A DNA stretch of 64,000 nt from Patescibacteria group bacterium (GTDB lineage: Bacteria; Patescibacteriota; Patescibacteriia; UBA9934). The stretch spans positions 20,542-84,541 of the forward strand of contig JBAYHK010000004.1 of NCBI GenBank assembly GCA_041666145.1, read 5' to 3'. Under the pieces are notes generated by a model that was not told where the DNA came from, made no database searches, and was given only the letters and a program-made list of their open reading frames with translations. The position numbers and the translations under genes are program-made. Of this stretch, positions 3,001-47,024 are shown one piece after another. The number at the start of each line of letters is the position of its first letter. The stretch's first letter is position 1.

Positions 3001-4721
3001 GACGTATACGAACCAGCTTCTACAGAAGAAAAATTCACCACCGATTCCCCTTGAGACTCTCCAAAATTAGATCCAGAAAGCGTGAGAGCTGACTCTGACT
3101 GACCAGAAGATCTTGAAAGTGTGCACAAATTCGGCATCACAACATCGTTCACGTCGAAATTTGAAACTAGTGCACCGTTGTCATCATCCGTGGCATCAGA
3201 AACATCATTTCCGGATGTAATTAAAATTGGACCATCGCCTGCACCTTCCGGTACCTCAACAACAATCTGCGTGTCACTCCATCCATCCGCACAATCATTC
3301 AACACAGTCGCCTCTACCGTTCCAGTCCCTGCCGCATCATAAAACATTACCGTTCCTGTATTTGCTCCAAAATCTGTTCCGGAAATTGTTACAAATGTTC
3401 CAACCGCACCAGAAATTGGAGCGACGTCAGTAATTGTTGGATTTGATGTACAAACAGACTCTTCACAAGATCCGCTTGAACATTCAGTAGCCTCTGTACA
3501 GCTCGAACCGTCACACGCACCACAATACGTGCTCAGTGAAGAGTCGCCTCCACAGTCAGTCCCAGTTTCACCAAGATCAGCGTCAGTAACTCCATTAAAA
3601 CACCACTCAGGTTGCGCGCGAACAGAAACTGTATCTGTATCTTCATTACCAGCAAGATCAAAAACAGTTGCGGAAATACTATATCGCTCACCATCCACAA
3701 AAGACTCGGTACTCAATGTGGTGCCAATCGTTGTCTCTGCTAAATGTCCAAGTGCCGGAACGCTGTCTTGCCAAACATCTTCAATAGAAAAGTCCGCAGA
3801 AACGACTACAACATTATCAATTGCACTTACCTGAACATCCATACTCGATGCCGACGCGACTCCAGCTCCACTCTCAGGAATAGTGATACTGGCCGAAGGG
3901 TCTTCAGTGTCAACATTTACTCCAGAAGTAAATGTCGCAGAGCACGGAGCGTCAAAACTACACGTCAAAATAACACCGTCTGAACTCTTTATGTTTTCCG
4001 TTGCAGCAATCGTGAATGTTGCATCTTTATCAAAACAGAATCGATCCGCATTCGGTTCAGGACATGCCGTACTCGGAGTAAAACGAATCACGTTATCTAA
4101 CACTGCATAATCTCCTGCAACCGCAGTACCAGATGCATCAACAATACTTAAATTTCCATCAACCGTCGTTTCATCTATTGCCTTACTAAATGTTACTCGA
4201 GGAACGATATTTCGAATTGACGTTTCTCCATCTGGAGAAAAGCTTGTTATTTCGAAAAGCGACGACGCACTGCCACCAAGACCAGATCCCGAACCAGAGC
4301 CTCCGCCAGCTCCAGAACCGCCAGATCCGCCTCCAGAAGCACCTGTTAATGCAGAAAGAACAAACGTCGCAATGCTCCATGACAACAAAATAATTACAAG
4401 TCCTATAGCCGCATTAATTAAAACCTGTTTTGCTTTATCAACTTTTTCCGGATTACCTTCAGCTGTCATCCAAAGAAAACCACCATATACAACAAAACAA
4501 ACTAGAACTATGCCAATGAATCCGAGTGCATAACGAATAATATTTCCAACAATGATCTTTGGATCTTCAGACCCGAGACCGGTGGTCTCTCCAACTGTCG
4601 TTAAATTCTCAGTAACCGCATCTGCAGCAAAGGCTACCTTTGGAAAACTACCAAAGGCTCCGAAAATCAATAAAAGTCCTAGTCCTATTCCTGCGAAAAA
4701 ATGGCGAAAAGAAATCTTCAC
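1..4721 (-). CDS. Giant cell-surface protein, partial (3' end/C-terminus lies beyond window start). It has an N-terminal signal peptide plus TrbC/VirB2-like two-helix membrane module, a Gly/Ser linker, four or more IPT/TIG-like repeats, and C-terminal CxxDDGN...DGCSxxC Cys-rich repeats (DUF4215 / Myxococcus-type)
   Basis: The minus frame with codon phase set by GTG at 4721 is open across all 4721 nt. No long ORF is listed in the track because the stop is outside the window. Hand translation gives VKISFRHFFAGIGLGLLLIFGAFGSFPKVAFAADA...GFLWMTAEGNPEKVDKAKQVLINAAIGLVIILLSW...GGSGGSGAGGGSGSGSG, then IPT-like ISGTDFGANTGTVMFYD repeats, then GDGVxxxxEECDDGNxxxGDGCSxxC repeats. The N-terminus aligns with the downstream paralog 4732..6561. 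Confidence 0.75.
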   Translation of the reverse strand, partial: MKISFRHFFAGIGLGLLLIFGAFGSFPKVAFAADAVTENLTTVGETTGLGSEDPKIIVGNIIRYALGFIGIVLVCFVVYGGFLWMTAEGNPEKVDKAKQVLINAAIGLVIILLSWSIATFVLSALTGASGGGSGGSGAGGGSGSGSGLGGSASSLFEITSFSPDGETSIRNIVPRVTFSKAIDETTVDGNLSIVDASGTAVAGDYAVLDNVIRFTPSTACPEPNADRFCFDKDATFTIAATENIKSSDGVILTCSFDAPCSATFTSGVNVDTEDPSASITIPESGAGVASASSMDVQVSAIDNVVVVSADFSIEDVWQDSVPALGHLAETTIGTTLSTESFVDGERYSISATVFDLAGNEDTDTVSVRAQPEWCFNGVTDADLGETGTDCGGDSSLSTYCGACDGSSCTEATECSSGSCEESVCTSNPTITDVAPISGAVGTFVTISGTDFGANTGTVMFYDAAGTGTVEATVLNDCADGWSDTQIVVEVPEGAGDGPILITSGNDVSDATDDDNGALVSNFDVNDVVMPNLCTLSRSSGQSESALTLSGSNFGESQGESVVNFSSVEAGSYTSWADGTVKVTIPNADAGDYDVAVVVGGNTSNTISFTVDVPETDVSTITDISPSSGGVGQYVTISGTNFRSSVGTVTFRGGDGTTATASIDFPEACLSDFWNDDQVTVIVPKSYDSGQDIAPGAYTVSVTNSQGTESTSIDFTISTDSPTPGICAITASGNVGESITIAGDNFGSDIDLVSFYSGVTTASSTRWTNDAIDVPVPVGATTGPLSIIVDGVSSNAVNFSVGSAESAVTTAGVYASYAWSFSTGEIAEVPQIVSECSSDIVSAVPSNEFSESGEICVNAAVYAEFTALMNEASVADAVTVAKCTATVSSSTDNSCATTEAVSGIATVSSSESATRFMWVPTENFDVNTTYQVTVSTVAQSIDSTPLASDETWTFTTAATDEDCVVDRVTVTPVSETLSEDGATTGFGANAGTGCVVVDNDDYAWDWSIDSYSYVDFNSSIDNECAGDPTACATFEAFAEGVTTVTATAINSESGGAISDDSQLTVNFTDPYISDFWPDCTESCSNAQVGALFNTTMTEGDIISGGNILLYSCANELCTTLTQVSSNPSCSYSDAAGTLCNGFTFESQVLTVGTYYRVIVSGSVRSVSGVALTRTNYGTGYSWTFRVREDGTLCSVERIDLAPSIATATAIGETAAFSVDAFGAADACSTSGQRLVGSDYAWSWEDPILDDAQNTETTASTAAWYTQSGELLDGSITGITEGCSASCTPGGSSAYQAVCGDGVLDQDSNGGGEECDDGNTTDHDGCSSMCLYEGSTACSFVCSSSGASCTADSECIETCDTSTSLCTLSGSACVTNSDCLYAESSCGTSGSNCCGNRDIEVNYSSDIAEDCDDGNLVDGDGCSSMCLAEGSAAVEATCGNNDVAYNTTTRAGEECDDGNNASGDGCSRQCLREGSQSLAALGNALCGDGVITTPYETCDDGNIENDDGCSSICIREGLSACSSSSDVDCCGNNSVDLISDSGIGEDCDGDEGCSDSCTFIGSSVSYSDPSVCGDG

Positions 4722-4731
4722 AAATGAATGT

Positions 4732-6543
4732 TTAGAAGAGCGTACATGCCGTCGACTGAGGAGTGCCATTACAACAATATGGAGAACTTGCAGTTGTCCC
4801 ACAACTACCACCGTTACTATCTGGGCCTTCCCCTGGAACAAAACAATTCTGATACTCGTTAAGAACTCCTTCGTTCGCCGCAACGCCATACATGAATGAC
4901 AAAGGAGGAACCGCCACTGAATCAGACGCAAGGAATGTTCCATGCTCAATCGTCACCATTGTTTTTACTGGAATTTGTGAATCAGTTAATACTTCTTCAT
5001 TTGCATCAGTCAACCAAACTGTTCTAAAGGCATACCAAAGTTCATGATCGTCGTTAGAATTGACCTCTTTATTTGAAAGCTCGATATTCGAAGAGTTCAC
5101 GCTCGATGTGTCTAATATTGAATCAAATGTAATCTGAATGGATTGGTCTAACGCAATATTTTCACTCAAAATTTCCGGAGCAATGCTTTCAATCGCTGGA
5201 GCGTCAAGATTTATATTATTTGTAGTAGTAAAACTCCAAATGTAATCATCGCCTGCACTGACGACACCATCACCATTTCCATCCATAGAGTTTCCTGACG
5301 TATCAACAATTCCATCGTAAGGATATATCGAAGCCGTCGGGTCTGTTGACGACGTTGGAGTAGCGGAAGCAATAGACGCTGTCACTAATTGACCACCAGG
5401 AAGGCAGTAAATCGTCTCACCACATGAGTTCGTTCCACAAGCGTCAGTAGTTGTGAATGTAACAGTTCGATATCCATTTCCAATTGTATATTCGCCTGCG
5501 GTTGGTGCAGACACCGACGCACCAACAACCTGAATATTCGAAAAACCACTTTCAGCTTCACGAATTCCAGAGGCGGAAGTTGGATCGACTGCCTCGCTAA
5601 ATGTCATCTGAACAGTAATGTTCCTATCTTTTGTCGAATTTGCCGATGGGGCAATGTTTTCAACTGTAGGTGGAGTAATATCGACTGTTGTTCCGGTTGT
5701 GAAGTACCAAAGGTATCCTCCGTCATCGATCATGGTCGCTCCTGTTGCGTCTTGAATTGAATCGCTCAAAAAGACTGCATACGTCACATCAGCAGTCGCA
5801 GAGCCAAGATATTCAGCTGGATCAAAAGAAAATGTTTTTAAATCATCAGTAAACGACACCGCCACATTCGTCAACGCGGAAGAATCACCAGTATCACGAA
5901 CATAAATTTTTACGTTTTCTGTATTTATTGCCGTTGCGACAGTATCGTCAGATACGTCTTCTGGAGTTCCGTTTGTATTGTATCCGTCAATAAACGATGA
6001 AATGTCCATTGCATCTCTAAACGTCACAAAAATCCGTGTATTTCGAGAAACGTCGGTGGCATTACGTGCTGGATAATGGTCTCTAATTGCGCCAGAGCCA
6101 AGCGAATTTGAAAGCCTTTCAACAGAAATACTACCCGAGCCATCTCCACTTCCGCTCCCCCCTGTTGCACCTCCGAGCGTATTCAAAATAAACGTCGCAA
6201 TCGCATAAGCAGAAAGTGTTATCACCAAACCAACAACTGCATTAATTAAGATCGCCTTTGCTTTCTCAACCCTCTTGCCATCTCCTCCTGCCGTCATCCA
6301 AATTGCACCAGCGTAAACAAAAAGGATCAAACAAATCACGCCAAGCAAACTCAATGCAACATTAATAACACGACCGATAATTGTCAGTAAATCTGTGTCT
6401 GCAAAACCGCCACCAGTTCCAACGGTGGCAAGATTTGCATCAGCGGCAAACGCGAAAAATGGAACAGCGATCAAGAACCCAATTGCAACAAAGAAAGAAC
6501 CGCGTTTGAACGCTCGAAAAAAAGAAGGGTTGAACACATGCAT
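4732..6543 (-). CDS. Surface protein paralog (~600 aa) with signal peptide plus TrbC/VirB2-like membrane module, GSGSGDGSGS linker and Big_5/SbsA-like Ig domains. Track ORF extends to 6561; start at MHVFNPSFF (6543) preferred by alignment to the paralog
   Basis: ORF 4732..6561. Two hydrophobic helices INVALSLLGVICLILFVYAGAIWM / LINAVVGLVITLSAYAIATFIL are separated by GGDGKRVEKAKA, matching VirB2/TrbC topology. ITPPTVENIAP...MTFSEAVD is Ig-like. Confidence 0.8.
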   Translation of the reverse strand: MHVFNPSFFRAFKRGSFFVAIGFLIAVPFFAFAADANLATVGTGGGFADTDLLTIIGRVINVALSLLGVICLILFVYAGAIWMTAGGDGKRVEKAKAILINAVVGLVITLSAYAIATFILNTLGGATGGSGSGDGSGSISVERLSNSLGSGAIRDHYPARNATDVSRNTRIFVTFRDAMDISSFIDGYNTNGTPEDVSDDTVATAINTENVKIYVRDTGDSSALTNVAVSFTDDLKTFSFDPAEYLGSATADVTYAVFLSDSIQDATGATMIDDGGYLWYFTTGTTVDITPPTVENIAPSANSTKDRNITVQMTFSEAVDPTSASGIREAESGFSNIQVVGASVSAPTAGEYTIGNGYRTVTFTTTDACGTNSCGETIYCLPGGQLVTASIASATPTSSTDPTASIYPYDGIVDTSGNSMDGNGDGVVSAGDDYIWSFTTTNNINLDAPAIESIAPEILSENIALDQSIQITFDSILDTSSVNSSNIELSNKEVNSNDDHELWYAFRTVWLTDANEEVLTDSQIPVKTMVTIEHGTFLASDSVAVPPLSFMYGVAANEGVLNEYQNCFVPGEGPDSNGGSCGTTASSPYCCNGTPQSTACTLF

Positions 6544-8628: not shown

Positions 8629-10665
8629 TCAGTAGAGATCGATGACCGCGTGCCCGTCGTATCCCCATCCCCAGTCGAAGGGCAGAGGGGAAATGGAAAC
8701 GCCTTCGAGGGTGACATCTTCACAATGATCGACGTCCTGGTAGAGCCACGTACCGTCACCAAAGTCGTGCTCCTCTCCGTAGGTCCCATCCGCGTCGTTG
8801 TCGAAGGGGCCGTTCAGAGCGACCGTGTGGCCGTGCACGAACAGGAAGTCGGTACAGAGCATGCCGAAGCCCTGCGCATAGCCCGGGAAGTCCCAGTCTG
8901 GGTCGAGGCTGCCGTCAGGAATGACGGTCCAGTCACGAATCCAGAGCTGCCAGGATACGCTCATGAGACCAGTCACCGGAGTAACGCAGATCTCCAAGGT
9001 ATCGGAGACATTCGCCAAGCCGTCGCAGTTGTCGTCCACGCCGTTCATGGACACTTCTTCGGCGTCAGGGTTGATCTCGGCATCCAGGTCGTTGCAGTCG
9101 CCGTCTTCCACGGTGAAGCCGTCGCTATCGGCGTCGGCGTCGTCGCAGGTCAGATCTTCGTCGACGCTGTCATCGCAGTCATCGTCCATGTCGTTGCAGA
9201 CTTCGTCGGCGGCGGGGTTGATGCCGGAATTTCCGTCGTCGCAGTCGGTGCTGTCGGAGACGTAGCCCTCGGGCGCGGAACAGGCAATCGCCGGAGTCCC
9301 GGAGCCGTAACCGTCATCGTCCATGTCGAGATAGAAGGAGGACATGAGCCCTTCATCCACCGCGCCGTCACAGTCGTCGTCGATACCATTGCAGGCTTCG
9401 GGGGCGCCGTTGTAGATGGCGGAGTCGGTGGGCTGGCAGTCCGTGATGTCCGGATCGCCGTCACCGTCGGTGTCGACCTCGGGCTCGGGTTCGCAGACAT
9501 CTCCTTCGTCGACGGCGGTGTCGCAGTCGTTGTCGATGGTGTCGCAGATCTCGGTGGCGCCGGGGTTGATGGCGGAGAGGAGGTCGTTGCAGTCGGTGTC
9601 GTCGGCGATGAAGCCGGTGGGAGCACCGTCACAGGTAGATTCCGAATTGGTGCTGTCGCCGTAGCCATCGCTGTCGCTGTCCGCGTACCAGGTGGCAAAG
9701 GGCAAGCCCTCGTCGATCTCGCTGTCGCAGTTGTCATTCACGCCGTTGCAGACTTCGGAGGCGCCGGGGTAGATGGCGATGTTGGAGTCGTTGCAGTCGG
9801 TGCTGTCGGAGACGTAGCCTTCGGGCGCAGAGCAGGCGGCAACGGAAACATCGATGTCCCCATAACCGTCCGTATCCGTGTCCCTGTAGAAGGCGTAGAG
9901 CTCAACTCCACTGTCCGCGGCGTCGACGAGCAGGTCACAGTCGTTGTCGATGGTGTCGCAGATCTCGGTGGCGCCGGGGTTGATGGCGGAGAGGAGGTCG
10001 TTGCAGTCGGTGCTGTCGGAGACGTAGCCTTCGGGCGCGGAGCAGGCGAGCATCATCATATCGGGGTCGCCGTAGCCGTCATCGTCATCGTCCACGAAGA
10101 AAGTGCTCGTGACGTCCTCATCGACGTCGCCATCGCAGTTGTCGTCGAGGCCGTTGCATTCTTCGGTGGCATCGGGATTGGTCTCGATGTCATCGTCGTC
10201 GCAGTCGCCGTCGATGGTGGCGTAGCCTTCGGTTCCGCAGGCCATGAAGCTTTCGCCGGTGCCGTAGGAATCGCCGTCGCTGTCGGTGTAGACAGGAACG
10301 TCGGCGTCCGTGACGTCAGCACTTTCATCGTTGCAGTCGCCGAAGTTGGTGCCCTCGGTCGAAGTGACTTCAATCCATTCTTCTTCCGGAGTGCCCGCGT
10401 AGATGCAGAAGCAGCCGGTGTGGAACGGATCCGAGACGCTCGCGTTGACGTAGGTGTCGCCGTCGGCGTCGGGGCAGTAGGCCTTGAGGGGGTCGGCGGA
10501 ACCGCTCACCACAAGGGCGAGACAGTCTTCAACGGTGGCGCCAGCCGGGAGATCTTTTCCCGTGGCATTGGTGCCAGGGATGTCGTAGATGTCATCGGTC
10601 TTGGTGGAACAGCCCATGAGGGCGAGGAGAAGGAGCGTAGCTCCGGAGATACTGGTGGATTTCAT
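8629..10665 (-). CDS. Secreted lipoprotein (678 aa) with about 8 tandem DxDCND..INPGAxExCDxxDNDCDxxxDE putative metal-binding (MopE-like, PF11617-type) repeats; markedly GC-rich
   Basis: MKSTSISGATLLLLALMGCS lipobox; repeated ...DCNDLLSAINPGATEICDTIDNDCD...; the gene is visibly GC-rich relative to flanking genes (GC not computed). Confidence 0.85.
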   Translation of the reverse strand: MKSTSISGATLLLLALMGCSTKTDDIYDIPGTNATGKDLPAGATVEDCLALVVSGSADPLKAYCPDADGDTYVNASVSDPFHTGCFCIYAGTPEEEWIEVTSTEGTNFGDCNDESADVTDADVPVYTDSDGDSYGTGESFMACGTEGYATIDGDCDDDDIETNPDATEECNGLDDNCDGDVDEDVTSTFFVDDDDDGYGDPDMMMLACSAPEGYVSDSTDCNDLLSAINPGATEICDTIDNDCDLLVDAADSGVELYAFYRDTDTDGYGDIDVSVAACSAPEGYVSDSTDCNDSNIAIYPGASEVCNGVNDNCDSEIDEGLPFATWYADSDSDGYGDSTNSESTCDGAPTGFIADDTDCNDLLSAINPGATEICDTIDNDCDTAVDEGDVCEPEPEVDTDGDGDPDITDCQPTDSAIYNGAPEACNGIDDDCDGAVDEGLMSSFYLDMDDDGYGSGTPAIACSAPEGYVSDSTDCDDGNSGINPAADEVCNDMDDDCDDSVDEDLTCDDADADSDGFTVEDGDCNDLDAEINPDAEEVSMNGVDDNCDGLANVSDTLEICVTPVTGLMSVSWQLWIRDWTVIPDGSLDPDWDFPGYAQGFGMLCTDFLFVHGHTVALNGPFDNDADGTYGEEHDFGDGTWLYQDVDHCEDVTLEGVSISPLPFDWGWGYDGHAVIDLY

Positions 10666-12954: not shown

Positions 12955-13058
12955 ACTCCCCCGTCACCTTGCGAGCCTTTTGCATTTTTGCTATCCTCCC
13001 ATCGATTCTTGAAAGAAGAAAGGTAGCGAATAAGAACGAGAAGTGTGTAAAAACTATT

Positions 13059-13157
13059 AAGTTTGTCGGATGCTAGGAGCCGCGAGGACCGAAGCGAGCC
13101 GTACTCAAATGTACGGCGAGCGAGGACCACAGCGGCGACAACGCAGCCGACAAACTT
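13059..13157 (+). other. About 100-nt extended nested hairpin immediately 5' of tRNA-Met (outer stem AAGTTTGTCGG / CCGACAAACTT)
   Basis: 11-bp perfect outer inverted repeat enclosing GC-rich nested pairings (GCCGCG/GCGGC, CGAGCCGTAC/GTACGGCGAGCG) and direct GAGGACC repeats. Confidence 0.4.
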
Positions 13158-13172
13158 GGATAGTTTTTACTA

Positions 13173-13248
13173 GGCTGGGTAGCTCAGTTGGTAGAGCACA
13201 GGACTCATAAGCCTGTTGTCGCGGGTTCGATCCCCGCCCCAGCTACCA
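13173..13248 (+). tRNA. tRNA-Met (anticodon CAU; could be initiator, elongator or tRNA-Ile2 precursor)
   Basis: 76 nt cloverleaf GGCUGGG-UA-GCUCAGUUGGUAGAGC-A-CAGGA-CUCAUAA-GCCUG-UUGUC-GCGGGUUCGAUCCCCGC-CCCAGCU-A-CCA; one A31:G39 mismatch. Confidence 0.8.
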
Positions 13249-16915: not shown

Positions 16916-16950
16916 CTCATAGGTCCTATAAGTCTTATAGGACCTATGAG
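16916..16950. repeat. 35-bp perfect palindrome CTCATAGGTCCTATAAG-T-CTTATAGGACCTATGAG (founding copy of a repeat family)
   Basis: Perfect inverted repeat; related copies at 22148..22176, 60568..60600 and a variant at 47603..47636. Confidence 0.85.
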
Positions 16951-17000: not shown

Positions 17001-17127
17001 AGAGAACGCTTTTTATTTCGGCCAGTTTCGATGAACCAGGAGGAAAGTTCGTGAAACGTACTTCTTGGTACGTTGAACGAATTTCCGACGCAGTGAGTCG
17101 AAAATGGACAAATAAAAAGCGTTCTCT
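17001..17127. ncRNA. Candidate structured RNA / repeat element, copy A (~127 nt). An 18-bp closing helix encloses the conserved core TTTCGATGAACCAGGAGGAAAGTTCGTGAAACGTAC...GTACGTTGAACGAATTTCCGACGCAGTGAGTCGAAA
   Basis: Closing helix AGAGAACGCTTTTTATTT (17001..17018) pairs perfectly with AAATAAAAAGCGTTCTCT (17110..17127). The core is about 85 percent identical to copy B at 46123..46247, whose closing helix has a completely different sequence. Confidence 0.4.
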
Positions 17128-17212
17128 GGTGCCGCGGGAGGGACTCGAACCCTCAATCCCTTACGAGAAACGGATTTTGAGTCCGTCGCGTATACCATTC
17201 CGCCACCGCGGC
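17127..17212 (-). tRNA. tRNA-Leu (anticodon CAA), class II with long variable arm
   Basis: 86 nt: GCCGCGG-UG-GCGGAAUGGUAUACGC-GACGGA-CUCAAAA-UCCGUU-UCUCGUAAGGGAUUGA-GGGUUCGAGUCCCUC-CCGCGGC-A-CCA. Confidence 0.8.
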
Positions 17213-22133: not shown

Positions 22134-22147
22134 AGAGTTTGAAGCTT

Positions 22148-22176
22148 ATAGGTCCTATAGGTCTAATAGGACCTAT
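22148..22176. repeat. Palindromic repeat copy ATAGGTCCTATAGGTCTAATAGGACCTAT in the 42-nt asnS-aspS spacer
   Basis: Imperfect inverted repeat sharing the ATAGGTCCTATA / TAGGACCTAT arms with 16916..16950. Confidence 0.8.
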
Positions 22177-44617: not shown

Positions 44618-45913
44618 TTATATAACAGATACTTCAGCGCCCACAGCCTTGAGCTTGCCATACAAATCCTCATAACCACGCTCAAGATGCTCAAAACCCG
44701 TTAATGTCGATGTCCCTTCTGCAACTAATGCGGCGATGATACAAGCCAACCCAGCACGAATATCCAAAAGCTCGATTGTTGATCCATGCAGCGACGTTGG
44801 CCCCTTAATGATCGCCGAGTGCTTGTAGTTCTTATCTTTAAATCGACAGCCCACTTCTCCAAGACACGTATCGAACAATGTCACGTCTGCACCCATCTCC
44901 TTCAACACGTCGGTATAGCCAAATCGTTCTTCATACACTGTTTCGTGAATCACCGACGTTCCTTCGGCCTGCGTCATTGCCACCAAGAACGGCTGCTGCC
45001 AGTCCGTCATAAATCCTGGATGCGTATCTGTTTCAATCTGAAATCCGTGATATTTCGAGGCACCTTTAAACAAAATTCCATTCTTTCGCACTTCGTAGTC
45101 TCCCCCAAGCAGTCGCACCGCATTCAAAAAGGTCACCATATCTCTATGCGACGCTCCTTCACAGAAAATCTCCCCCCGCGTTGCCAGCGCCAAACTCCCA
45201 AACGAAGCCGCCTCCATTCTGTCTGGCAAAACGGTATGTTCGCAACCATGAAGTTTCTCGACTCCAATAATTTCAATATGACGTCCTGCTCCAAGTTCAA
45301 TGATCGCTCCCATCTTCTGCAACATCATGATGAGCTCAATGAGTTCTGGTTCGATTGCCGCATTCTTAATGACCGTTCGACCCTTCGCAAGCACCGCCGA
45401 AAACAACGCCGTCTCTGTTGCACCAACCGATGGATATGGCAAATCGATAACGCAACCCTTAAATCCGTTCACCGATGTCGCATGGTAGCCATCAACATCT
45501 CCAACAATCTTTGCGCCCATCGCCTCAAGAGTATCAACATGAAAATTGACTGGACGCGGACCAATCTTGTCTCCTCCGAGTGTTGGCACAAACGCTTCGC
45601 CGGTTCTATGAAGTAACGGCGCCAACGCCAAAATCGCCAAACGATTCTTTCTAGAAAGCGACATTGCAGACGACGACGCAATCTTTTCTACCCGCAACGT
45701 CAGCGTATGATCAGCTAAGTTCGATGTTGCTCCAAGCGTTGTAACAAGCTCCCGAGCAATCTCCGTCTCTTTCTGTAACGGAACGTTATGAAGAATAACC
45801 TCTTCATCCGTCAATAATGCTGCAATGATCATCTTACTTGCCGCATTTTTTGCACCCGCAATCTTTACCGTCCCCTTAAGCGGCTTTCCGCCCGTGATCG
45901 TCATGGTTTGCAT
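44618..45913 (-). CDS. murA: UDP-N-acetylglucosamine 1-carboxyvinyltransferase
   Basis: 431 aa; KIAGAKNAASK, EPSP-synthase fold. Confidence 0.9.
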   Translation of the reverse strand: MQTMTITGGKPLKGTVKIAGAKNAASKMIIAALLTDEEVILHNVPLQKETEIARELVTTLGATSNLADHTLTLRVEKIASSSAMSLSRKNRLAILALAPLLHRTGEAFVPTLGGDKIGPRPVNFHVDTLEAMGAKIVGDVDGYHATSVNGFKGCVIDLPYPSVGATETALFSAVLAKGRTVIKNAAIEPELIELIMMLQKMGAIIELGAGRHIEIIGVEKLHGCEHTVLPDRMEAASFGSLALATRGEIFCEGASHRDMVTFLNAVRLLGGDYEVRKNGILFKGASKYHGFQIETDTHPGFMTDWQQPFLVAMTQAEGTSVIHETVYEERFGYTDVLKEMGADVTLFDTCLGEVGCRFKDKNYKHSAIIKGPTSLHGSTIELLDIRAGLACIIAALVAEGTSTLTGFEHLERGYEDLYGKLKAVGAEVSVI

Positions 45914-46122
45914 AATGTGAATAGTGTAAAGGGAAAGGCAGGAAAATGGAACGCGCGTTCAGGAATCAATGAAAGTTTTGAAAACGACACGTCATAACAA
46001 GCTACGGATCCCTCCTATCGTCGGGATGGGAAAAGAAAAAGATTCACCAAGTTAGAAAAAACAAAACGCCGTCATTTGCGACTCATTTCGATGAACAAGA
46101 CAAATTCTCAGAATCGATGGAA

Positions 46123-46247
46123 ACAAAACGTCATTATTCGAGGCTAATTTCAACGAACGAGGAGGAAAGTTCGTGAGACGTACCCAACGTACGTTGAACG
46201 AATTTCCGACAAGTGAGTTGAAAGTAGACCGAATAATGACGTTTTGT
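46123..46247. ncRNA. Candidate structured RNA / repeat element, copy B (~125 nt), core homologous to 17001..17127
   Basis: Closing helix ACAAAACGTCATTATTCG (46123..46140) pairs perfectly with CGAATAATGACGTTTTGT (46230..46247). Core is ...TTTCAACGAACGAGGAGGAAAGTTCGTGAGACGTACCCAACGTACGTTGAACGAATTTCCGACAAGTGAGTTGAAA. Confidence 0.4.
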
Positions 46248-46424
46248 GTAACCGACGGAAGTCGTGAAATGGCCCGAAAGCCATATGTCTGCACAAGGCA
46301 GCGCTGAGTCCGCGTGTGCGTCTGTTAAGAAGCCGTTCGCACGGTGATCACACCGTTTGCTGCCTGGACTCTTTCACGAATGAATTAGGCAAATCACGAA
46401 ACCGTCGGTCACCATCATCGTAAC

Positions 46425-46452
46425 ATAAAACCGCGAAAAAGATTCGCGGTTT
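46425..46452 (-). terminator. ndk terminator (bidirectional-looking)
   Basis: ACCGCGAA-AAAGA-TTCGCGGT with flanking A/T tracts. Confidence 0.6.
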
Positions 46453-46462
46453 TATGAGTGAA

Positions 46463-46969
46463 TTATTTTGTTGGAAAGTGGAATTTATCATCAATCTTTC
46501 CGTATGACAGCAACTCTTCTGGCTTAAACCAAACAGCGATTTCTGTTTCTGCTTCTTCTGCCGACCCAGAAGCGTGAACAAGGTTGAATATGCCGACTCC
46601 TTTACTGTCCGCATATCCAAATGAAATATGGGAATAGTCTCCGCGGATCGTTCCCGGCGCTGCACTTTTTGGCTCTGTAGAACCAATCATTTTTCGTACA
46701 ACCTCCACCATCTCAACTCCCTCAAAAGCAATTGCGATGATTGGACCAGAAGTAATCAAGTCGATCATCATGGTTCGAACATGCTCACCACGACGCTTTG
46801 CCAAGTCTTCGGTGTAATGCTGCGCTGCGGTGTCCTTATCTGAAACAAGCATCTTCAGCCCGATCATTCGAGCACCAACACGTTCAAAACGAGTCACAAT
46901 CTCGCCAACAATGCCTCGCTGAATTGCATCTGGCTTCAAAAGAACCAGTGATCGTTGTAGATCTGCCAT
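46463..46969 (-). CDS. ndk: Nucleoside diphosphate kinase
   Basis: LQRSLVLLKPDAIQRGIVGEIV...NLVHASGSAEEAETEI; start at MADLQ. Confidence 0.85.
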   Translation of the reverse strand: MADLQRSLVLLKPDAIQRGIVGEIVTRFERVGARMIGLKMLVSDKDTAAQHYTEDLAKRRGEHVRTMMIDLITSGPIIAIAFEGVEMVEVVRKMIGSTEPKSAAPGTIRGDYSHISFGYADSKGVGIFNLVHASGSAEEAETEIAVWFKPEELLSYGKIDDKFHFPTK

Positions 46970-47024
46970 AGAAATTTCGCTAAGATTTGCGGGCAGTGTA
47001 TGAGAAAGTGAACAAAAAGGCAAA

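Follow-up and report, generated by a model that had tools for sequence, protein, structure and literature searches.

Compensated RNA hairpins at the ends of tRNA and tmRNA genes in Uhrbacteria-like Patescibacteria

Double-stranded stems are a familiar part of stable-RNA precursors: the RNase III stems of rrn operons and the external transcribed spacers (such as 3'ETS-leuZ) are built into the transcript and removed at maturation, and the spacers released in this way can have functions of their own. A different body of work concerns the palindromes of ~100–150 nt that are dispersed between genes, among them Correia/NEMIS in Neisseria, ERIC, BOX/RUP and REP/REPIN, which are co-transcribed and form hairpins, the Correia elements being substrates of RNase III. 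There are also RNAs other than tRNA whose biogenesis is coupled to RNase P or RNase Z, such as MALAT1-mascRNA, the tRNA-miRNA units of MHV68, the tRNA-snoRNA units of plants and the stable RNAs C and D from the tRNA cluster of phage T4; we know of no multi-copy case of this kind on a bacterial chromosome. The bacteria of the candidate phyla radiation have tiny genomes, and their RNA biology has barely been studied by experiment. In mitochondrial genomes, repetitive hairpin-forming elements are described as repeated invaders (PMC2800124). The hairpins reported here resemble those mitochondrial elements in being intergenic hairpin repeats in a compact genome.

Our subject is one hairpin and its relatives, and the questions that it raises are easily put: what family does it belong to, which of its strands folds, and why does it sit where it sits? 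The hairpin, which we call copy B, occupies positions 46123–46247 on the plus strand of the window, by which we mean the whole 64,000-nt stretch of Patescibacteria DNA that was analysed. It is an imperfect hairpin of 125 nt with a minimum free energy of −60.8 kcal/mol, compared with −25.2 ± 3.3 for shuffled sequences (z = −10.85). Its outer helix joins two arms of 18 nt each (46123–46140 / 46230–46247) whose complementarity is 100%. Above this stand the middle helices (46144–46154 / 46217–46227), a lower GA/GA loop (46162–46163 / 46208–46209), a GGAAA/TTTCC helix (46164–46168 / 46203–46207) with a bulged G at 46169, a TTCGT/ACGAA helix (46170–46174 / 46198–46202), an invariant GA/GA (46175–46176 / 46196–46197) and finally, an apical stem (46177–46183 / 46189–46195) closed by the loop 46184–46188. 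The core, GAGGAGGAAAGTTCGTGAGACGTAC, lies at 46159–46183, and the 3' core at 46196–46223; the sole other match to GAGGAGGAAAGTTCGTGAGACGTAC in the window is at 17037–17061, with 2 mismatches, where the chance expectation is 0. A truncated 5'-half remnant of the element (ACAAAACGCCGTCATTTGCGACTCATTTCGATGAAC; 46061–46100, plus strand) precedes the corresponding part of copy B by 62 nt. It matches 46121–46161 and the element at locus L033 by BLAST, its complementarity to the 3' arm of copy B is 81%, and a 5'-half remnant upstream of a full copy is also found in L085 and L100.

The second match to the core belongs to copy A (17002–17126, plus strand), which folds at −61.2 kcal/mol (z = −9.8) and scores 124.1 bits with the covariance model that is described below. 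Its last base pair abuts the CCA end of tRNA-Leu(caa), which lies on the minus strand at 17127–17212. The outer helix of copy A is as perfect as that of copy B but differs in sequence (GAGAACGCTTTTTATTT in A and ACAAAACGTCATTATTCG in B), and the middle helices change between the two in compensated fashion, from TTTCGAT/GTCGAAA to TTTCAAC/GTTGAAA and from CCA/TGG to CTA/TAG. Copy C (13047–13170, plus strand) is a diverged member of the family that scores 43.6 bits (E = 1e-9, with a model match spanning 13043–13176) and ends 2 nt before tRNA-Met (13173–13248, plus strand). The window has four tRNAs in all, and of these, one has a copy upstream and one more has a copy downstream. An earlier note on this DNA had seen a structured element in two copies with a common core, had given copy B a perfect 18-bp flanking helix and had read an A-to-G change in the internal stem as one that keeps G:U pairing. 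All of this stands: the element is genuine, both copies are real, and the change runs from GTGAAAC in A to GTGAGAC in B. The pair concerned is GC in 12 family members, GU in 10 and AU in 5, so that the change is a tolerated wobble. What the note missed was the third copy, C, and the association with tRNA genes.

A pattern scan in which each species was represented by one genome gave ~16 true matches alongside chance hits, the hosts being mostly Candidatus Uhrbacteria or "Patescibacteria group" metagenome-assembled genomes (MAGs), several of them with more than one copy. Two MAGs with the element carry the label "Gammaproteobacteria" (L017 and L018), which may be a matter of mis-binning, every other host being a Patescibacterium. 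The MurA encoded in the window is 100% identical to a "Patescibacteria group bacterium" protein and 69–80% identical to Uhrbacteria-named proteins. When 18 copies were aligned with MAFFT, the core proved invariant and the arms variable, and RNAalifold found 41 pairs in this alignment, with compensatory changes in 31 of them. A covariance model built from the same alignment found 28 copies in the first loci, copy C included, and 28 more in 20 metagenome contigs. In an alignment of 28 sequences, which was fitted to the model in a way that inflates pairing somewhat, 96.1% of the cells are in standard pairs (69.5% in column shuffles) and 39 of the 41 pairs show double-sided changes; none of 500 shuffles attains any of these measures, and the independent MAFFT alignment agrees. 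Sliding the register by 1–3 columns lowers pairing to 35–50%. The element is, then, a family of RNA hairpins of ~125–135 nt, previously undescribed and so far found only in Uhrbacteria-like Patescibacteria, and the pattern of substitution points to long-term selection for the hairpin structure on one folded strand. Our literature searches did not find an earlier description of it.

Which strand folds can be read from three features. On the strand that carries GGAGG, G:U cells number 67 and A:C cells 8. The model scores for copies A, B and C are 124, 121 and 44 bits in the sense direction vs. 43, 41 and 14 bits in the antisense direction (for copy B, more exactly, plus-strand 120.7 and minus-strand 41.5). 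Finally, GA flanks the apical stem on both sides in all 27 full copies, forming a 5'-GA/3'-AG tandem mismatch, and a second GA/GA loop lies one helical turn below the apical one in about 21 of the 27; on the complementary strand, these purine loops would read UC/UC. The G:U excess, the sense scores and the GA loops together identify the functional single strand as the plus strand of the window. We take that strand to act as RNA; single-stranded DNA is less likely, the strand bias itself fitting either.

The position of the hairpin follows a rule, too. We took a census of 57 model hits, with tRNA and tmRNA genes called by ARAGORN and Rfam, in which some metagenome hits duplicate genome hits; the loci had been selected for containing the element, so the counts describe sites that have a copy and not tRNA genes at large. 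The 3' end of the helix lies within 5 nt of the end of a tRNA or tmRNA gene in 34 of the 57. In 26 of them, a gene for tRNA or tmRNA begins on the strand of the hairpin 0–5 nt past its last base pair, and in 8, the CCA end of an opposite-strand tRNA falls between −2 and +1. At the 5' end of the hairpin, no tRNA comes nearer than 13 nt in any hit. Four more hits abut a 5' fragment of tRNA-Arg, and ~40% of hits, copy B among them, have no adjoining tRNA. Because all tRNAs at these junctions encode CCA, the opposite-strand cases read, on the strand of the hairpin, as helix, (T)GGN, acceptor-stem complement. In both orientations, that is, the helix ends 2–5 nt before a sequence that is like an acceptor stem or the mirror of one. 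At L100, a copy ends 5 nt before a tmRNA, which scores 97.6 bits with Rfam and has an inverted copy downstream of it; units of copy, tRNA and inverted copy also occur at L017 and L037. We considered that such flanking inverted copies might pair with each other as an rRNA-type processing stem and rejected the idea, as they are too diverged from each other.

Promoters could be recognized upstream of the hairpin in two cases. At L071, the order is a terminator, a TTGTCA-17-TATATT promoter (10/12), the hairpin and tRNA-Met, and at L007, it is a TTGTCA-17-TATGAT promoter (10/12), the hairpin and tRNA-Gly; at both, the gap between hairpin and tRNA is too short for a promoter. We looked for a promoter inside the element that might serve a leaderless tRNA and found that TAnnnT boxes in the 3' arm were inconsistent. 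A promoter common to the upstream flanks of the copies was rejected too, these flanks being heterogeneous, although GAAT or GAAC recurs just before the helix, even directly after an upstream tRNA; given that persistence, it is probably a part of the element. With promoters upstream and no space left for one before the tRNA, the hairpin in its usual position would belong to the 5' leader of a stable-RNA precursor, or to the spacer between two tRNAs, and would end at the RNase P site, since that enzyme cleaves at nucleotide +1.

Essentially, we propose that members of the family are transcribed with stable-RNA genes, as a module of their leaders, spacers or trailers, and are released by RNase P. 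This is the reading that we prefer, and we hold it tentatively. At the typical site, a sigma-70-type promoter would come first and then the hairpin, as part of the 5' leader, with its last base pair 0–5 nt before +1 of the tRNA or tmRNA; at the alternative kind of site, it would lie tail-to-tail against the CCA end, 2–5 nt before the mirror of the acceptor stem. If RNase P cuts at the neighbouring tRNA fold, or at the mirror fold, the hairpin would come away with a few extra nucleotides at its 3' end; its outer helix of 17–18 bp may be cleaved by RNase III, and the GGAGGAAAG/UUUCCGAC box and the apical stem between its invariant GA/GA pairs might be read by a protein or nuclease. Like the processing stems of rrn and tRNA transcripts, this would be a long stem in the non-coding part of a stable-RNA precursor. 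Unlike the rrn stems, it does not form between the two flanks of a gene: one self-contained hairpin with an invariant GA/GA core recurs as a module at many separate genes for tRNA and tmRNA, and its distance from the RNase P site is fixed. Such placement suggests a new kind of leader/spacer module for stable-RNA genes. Reuse at many tRNA genes and at the tmRNA gene, with the RNase P site a set distance away, points to a step that is specific to this lineage, either in the maturation of stable RNAs or in the production of small RNAs.

Several observations weaken this proposal. About 40% of hits lack an adjacent tRNA, and some copies stand just upstream of protein-gene promoters, namely that of rpmH (L038) and those of yqeY and a malic-enzyme-like gene (L062 and L081). 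For copy B, our promoter scan found no promoter on the plus strand. A stable helix placed 0–5 nt from an RNase P site might hinder the very cleavage that we invoke. Finally, the presence and absence of copies at a site, and the truncated, core-deleted and near-identical copies, would also fit a mobile repeat.

That last thought deserves to be taken seriously. Suppose that the element is a selfish, non-autonomous mobile hairpin of the MITE or REPIN sort, which has the ends of tRNA-like genes as its targets and inserts with its 3' end leading; tRNA ends would then be safe sites in a compact genome, and what keeps the hairpin would be competence for transposition and not a function for the host. 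The orthologous ndk-murA site is empty in six of seven relatives (L091–L094, L096 and L097) and filled in the window and in L095, where the ortholog of copy B scores 55 bits at the same site and in the same orientation. Between the genes for Leu(caa) and Met, the orientation of the element is flipped when L042 is set against L069. There are truncated 5' halves, a copy that kept its outer and middle helices with its core deleted (L081, 5522–5601) and a copy with a 53-nt insertion of two hairpins placed exactly at the invariant GA beside the apical stem (L100, 1440–1630). One genome has three copies that are nearly identical (L007, L029 and L049), and the polarity of the junctions is strict. However, the ends differ between copies, leaving no common terminal inverted repeats, and variable ends also argue against the master-sequence pattern of REPINs. 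Reading the flanks of six copies by eye, we saw no consistent direct repeat that could be a target-site duplication, and we noticed no transposase beside copies at six loci or among the genes of the syntenic loci. The element went unmatched in phage, plasmid and viral collections. Identical tRNA loci (Met, Leu-caa, Gly-tcc and Arg-tcg) are occupied across different, diverged genomes, and the pervasive compensatory change around an invariant, asymmetric core suggests long-term selection on one strand. We think a selfish origin the chief rival of our reading, though the less likely of the two. The element does resemble Correia, ERIC and REPIN sequences in being a dispersed intergenic palindromic hairpin with truncated and variant copies. 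It differs from them in its unconserved ends, in arms that are compensated around an invariant core, in the lack of target duplication (in the six copies read by eye) and in its strongly polar and precise juxtaposition to the ends of tRNA and tmRNA genes. Membership in the MITE, Correia or ERIC repeats was rejected on the first of these grounds, common terminal inverted repeats being absent and the outer arms differing between copies and covarying. The preferred reading and a mobile one can be compatible in any case, since a functional module can spread by recombination.

Might the hairpin instead be the product, and the tRNA the tool? One can imagine a small RNA that is encoded in many copies and acts in trans, either alone or as part of an RNP, and that uses a tRNA or mirror-tRNA fold only as an RNase P signal for its 3' end, with the GA/GA apical stem as its putative protein-binding site. 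The main argument is that an acceptor-stem-like sequence follows the hairpin by 2–5 nt in both orientations. The core is also invariant across subfamilies while all else covaries, and there are copies away from tRNAs, some with a −10-like box just upstream; L038 has TTGATC-17-GAGAAT, read by eye, and CAGAAT stands 7 nt before copy B. Against this, no promoter is common to the upstream flanks, several copies begin 13–19 nt downstream of a tRNA, too close for a promoter to fit in between, and transcription of the mirror of a tRNA would mean collision with a highly expressed gene. We regard this possibility, which is close kin to our preferred reading, as distinctly unlikely. Such an arrangement would be like the MALAT1-mascRNA and MHV68 units, in that a structured RNA is joined to a tRNA or tRNA-like fold whose enzyme would set the end of the RNA; it is unlike them in that the use of a mirror tRNA is read here from the geometry of the junction only. 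If the hairpin were indeed the product, its route of biogenesis would be one not described for bacterial chromosomes.

The placement data also bear on the idea that the signal is one of DNA, that is, a hairpin in single-stranded or cruciform form that would serve as a recognition site for a recombinase or for proteins of replication or repair, as attC sites and the ends of IS200/IS605 do. G:T wobbles and tandem G:A mismatches are stable in single-stranded DNA too, so that strand bias alone proves no RNA, and the tRNA or tmRNA genes that lie between inverted copies (L017, L037 and L100) do resemble cassettes. We consider the idea very unlikely nonetheless, for the hairpin points the same way as the gene after it in 26 cases to 8, promoters precede it, and in the neighbourhoods that we looked at, we noticed neither an integrase nor a Y1 transposase. 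The conserved end motifs of attC are absent as well; an integron attC site is rejected, the element lacking the boxes RYYYAAC / GTTRRRY and having tRNA, tmRNA and housekeeping genes for neighbours.

Nor does the hairpin belong to a known RNA class that we could recognize. At the gathering threshold, Rfam 15 matched nothing in the whole window besides the four tRNAs, and on 16 related loci, it matched only tRNAs and the tmRNA. With E relaxed up to 10 at the loci of copies A and B, a search of the kind that the earlier note had recommended, with 6S, SRP, RNase P and tmRNA in mind, it returned only meaningless noise from miRNA-precursor and snoRNA models, far short of their thresholds (for example, 25 bits vs. 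a threshold of 90). The sequence GGAGGAAAGUUCG resembles conserved region CR-I of RNase P RNA, GGAGGAAAGUCCG. RNase P RNA has a P4 pseudoknot made with the distant CR-V strand and measures about 300–400 nt; here, the GGAGGAAAGUUCG box has its partner close by, in UUUCC..CGAA of the same simple hairpin, no model matched, and we rejected this assignment. A kink-turn was rejected, as the tandem GA/GA, invariant though it is, sits in symmetric 2×2 loops without a 3-nt bulge, and so were the hammerhead and hairpin ribozymes and the C/D-box, SRP and Y-RNA classes, since the element has no branches and consists of one hairpin whose GA/GA loops are symmetric. A 44-codon ORF that begins with GTG at 46173 in copy B was also set aside: other members have GCG or AGG in place of this GTG, its pairing partner covaries with it, and the indels in loop and linker between A and B change the reading frame. 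The earlier note had judged a small protein unlikely, and the variation in start and frame among members bears it out. The covariance model can now be used for annotation and would prevent small-ORF miscalls such as this one, and annotation with it would draw attention to the distinct, conserved RNA of ~160 nt beside ndk that is described below.

What, then, of copy B itself, which has no tRNA beside it? It lies between murA (44618–45913, minus strand) and ndk (46463–47023 as listed, minus strand), in a spacer that measures 549 bp (put at 550 bp by the earlier note), is structured and non-coding throughout and holds no credible ORF. At its ndk end is the ndk terminator, a perfect 14-bp inverted repeat (46424–46437 / 46443–46456) with a T-run. 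The block at 46250–46409 is a candidate small RNA of ~160 nt on the minus strand, which we call X, with a closing stem CCGACGG..GUCGUGA / UCACGA..CCGUCGG. X is 88–89% identical in nucleotides to L091 8036–8212 and L095 4416–4576, which likewise lie between genes, right behind ndk, and come from genomes whose MurA is 84–87% identical to that of the window. Its fold has z = −2.8, it is unmatched in Rfam, and three near-identical sequences offer no usable covariation. Reading the alignment, we infer an extended −10 box, TGTTACGAT, at 46417–46425 on the minus strand, 7 nt before the closing stem; its counterparts in the relatives are TGCTACGAT and TGCTAGAAT.

L091 has X without a copy of the hairpin there, and in it, X is followed by a short hairpin with two G:U pairs that are valid only on the strand of X, and then by CGTTTTGTTTTG; judged by its sequence, this is an ordinary terminator of X. 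In the window and in L095, our hairpin stands where the terminator hairpin of L091 sits, tail-to-tail with X, the 3' ends facing. Copy B would, therefore, be of the tail-to-tail type, like copy A, with the minus-strand RNA X (46409 to 46250) and not a tRNA as its neighbour. A U-run, GTTTTGT, is kept as the end of the outer helix of copy B, and TTCC follows. Read on the minus strand, the hairpin ends in ACGUUUUGU, with UUCC after it, where L091 has its short hairpin and CGUUUUGUUUUG. Most likely, to go by this correspondence, the complement of copy B together with GUUUUGUUUCC would serve as the terminator hairpin of X; that the consensus scan reports no terminator there is explained by the U-run lying partly inside the stem. 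In relatives whose MurA is 73–87% identical, ndk and murA stay neighbours with one or two extra genes between them. We searched the murA-ndk spacer with these inserted genes by tblastn for a protein gene that might have been lost there, came up empty and rejected that candidate.

The earlier note had gone further: it pointed to GC-rich inverted repeats downstream of copy B, supposed that a longer ncRNA may reside here and suggested folding 46090–46420 as one unit. We took this to mean one plus-strand ncRNA across ~46090–46420 with copy B as its 5' domain. The entire 549-bp spacer is indeed non-coding and structured, and the ndk terminator was correctly placed; the repeats at 46250–46420 are not part of the element. 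The block 46250–46409 is conserved in L091 without the hairpin and has, by prediction, a promoter and terminator of its own on the minus strand, the hairpin is a self-contained module and recurs elsewhere without the block, and no Rfam family appears at E up to 10. We find a single long ncRNA barely credible, along with its minor variant of a small protein, whose GTG start is unconserved and whose frame is broken by indels. The region holds two adjacent RNA features of opposite orientation.

Some smaller observations were made along the way. A second palindromic repeat, unrelated to the hairpin family (CTCATAGGTCCTATAAGTCTTATAGGACCTATGAG), occurs in the window at 16916–16950, 22145–22176 and 60567–60598 and, more weakly, at 47611–47633; one copy of this repeat family sits between copy A and tRNA-Val. 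A hairpin of ~50 nt (52757–52808; TTCCCTACGA...TCGTAGGGAA) stands 21 nt ahead of tRNA-Ser (52830); within it is GAAAGAAATTTCGCGA, which is faintly core-like, and the covariance model does not detect it. The stretch 9000–10500 is a long, diverged tandem array (60–75% identity) with periods of ~200 nt and with sub-repeats (GTCGCAGTCGTTGTCGAT...), and at L049 (~3990–4062), four tandem repeats of ~16 nt (CGAACGTACATGTAG) lie immediately upstream of a copy of the element. At L085 (458–712; also L111–L113), tRNA-Arg(tcg) is represented by a 5' fragment, a complete gene and a 3' fragment, and the complete gene is flanked by a perfect inverted repeat of ~24 nt (GAAACAAAAGTGACCATCTTTTCC); the arrangement looks like a tRNA copy nested in a tRNA gene. 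At L038, a copy (4781–4917) stands between DnaA boxes (TTATCCACA), in a dnaA-rpmH origin-type region, and a TGGTATAAT promoter, which drives rpmH-rnpA, the operon of the RNase P protein. Finally, a −10-like box (TAAAAT, TATAAA or TACACT) lies 7–10 nt before a start codon that has no Shine-Dalgarno sequence at L062 (~5917), at L081 (~292) and at 45913 in the window, which hints that leaderless mRNAs may be frequent in this lineage.
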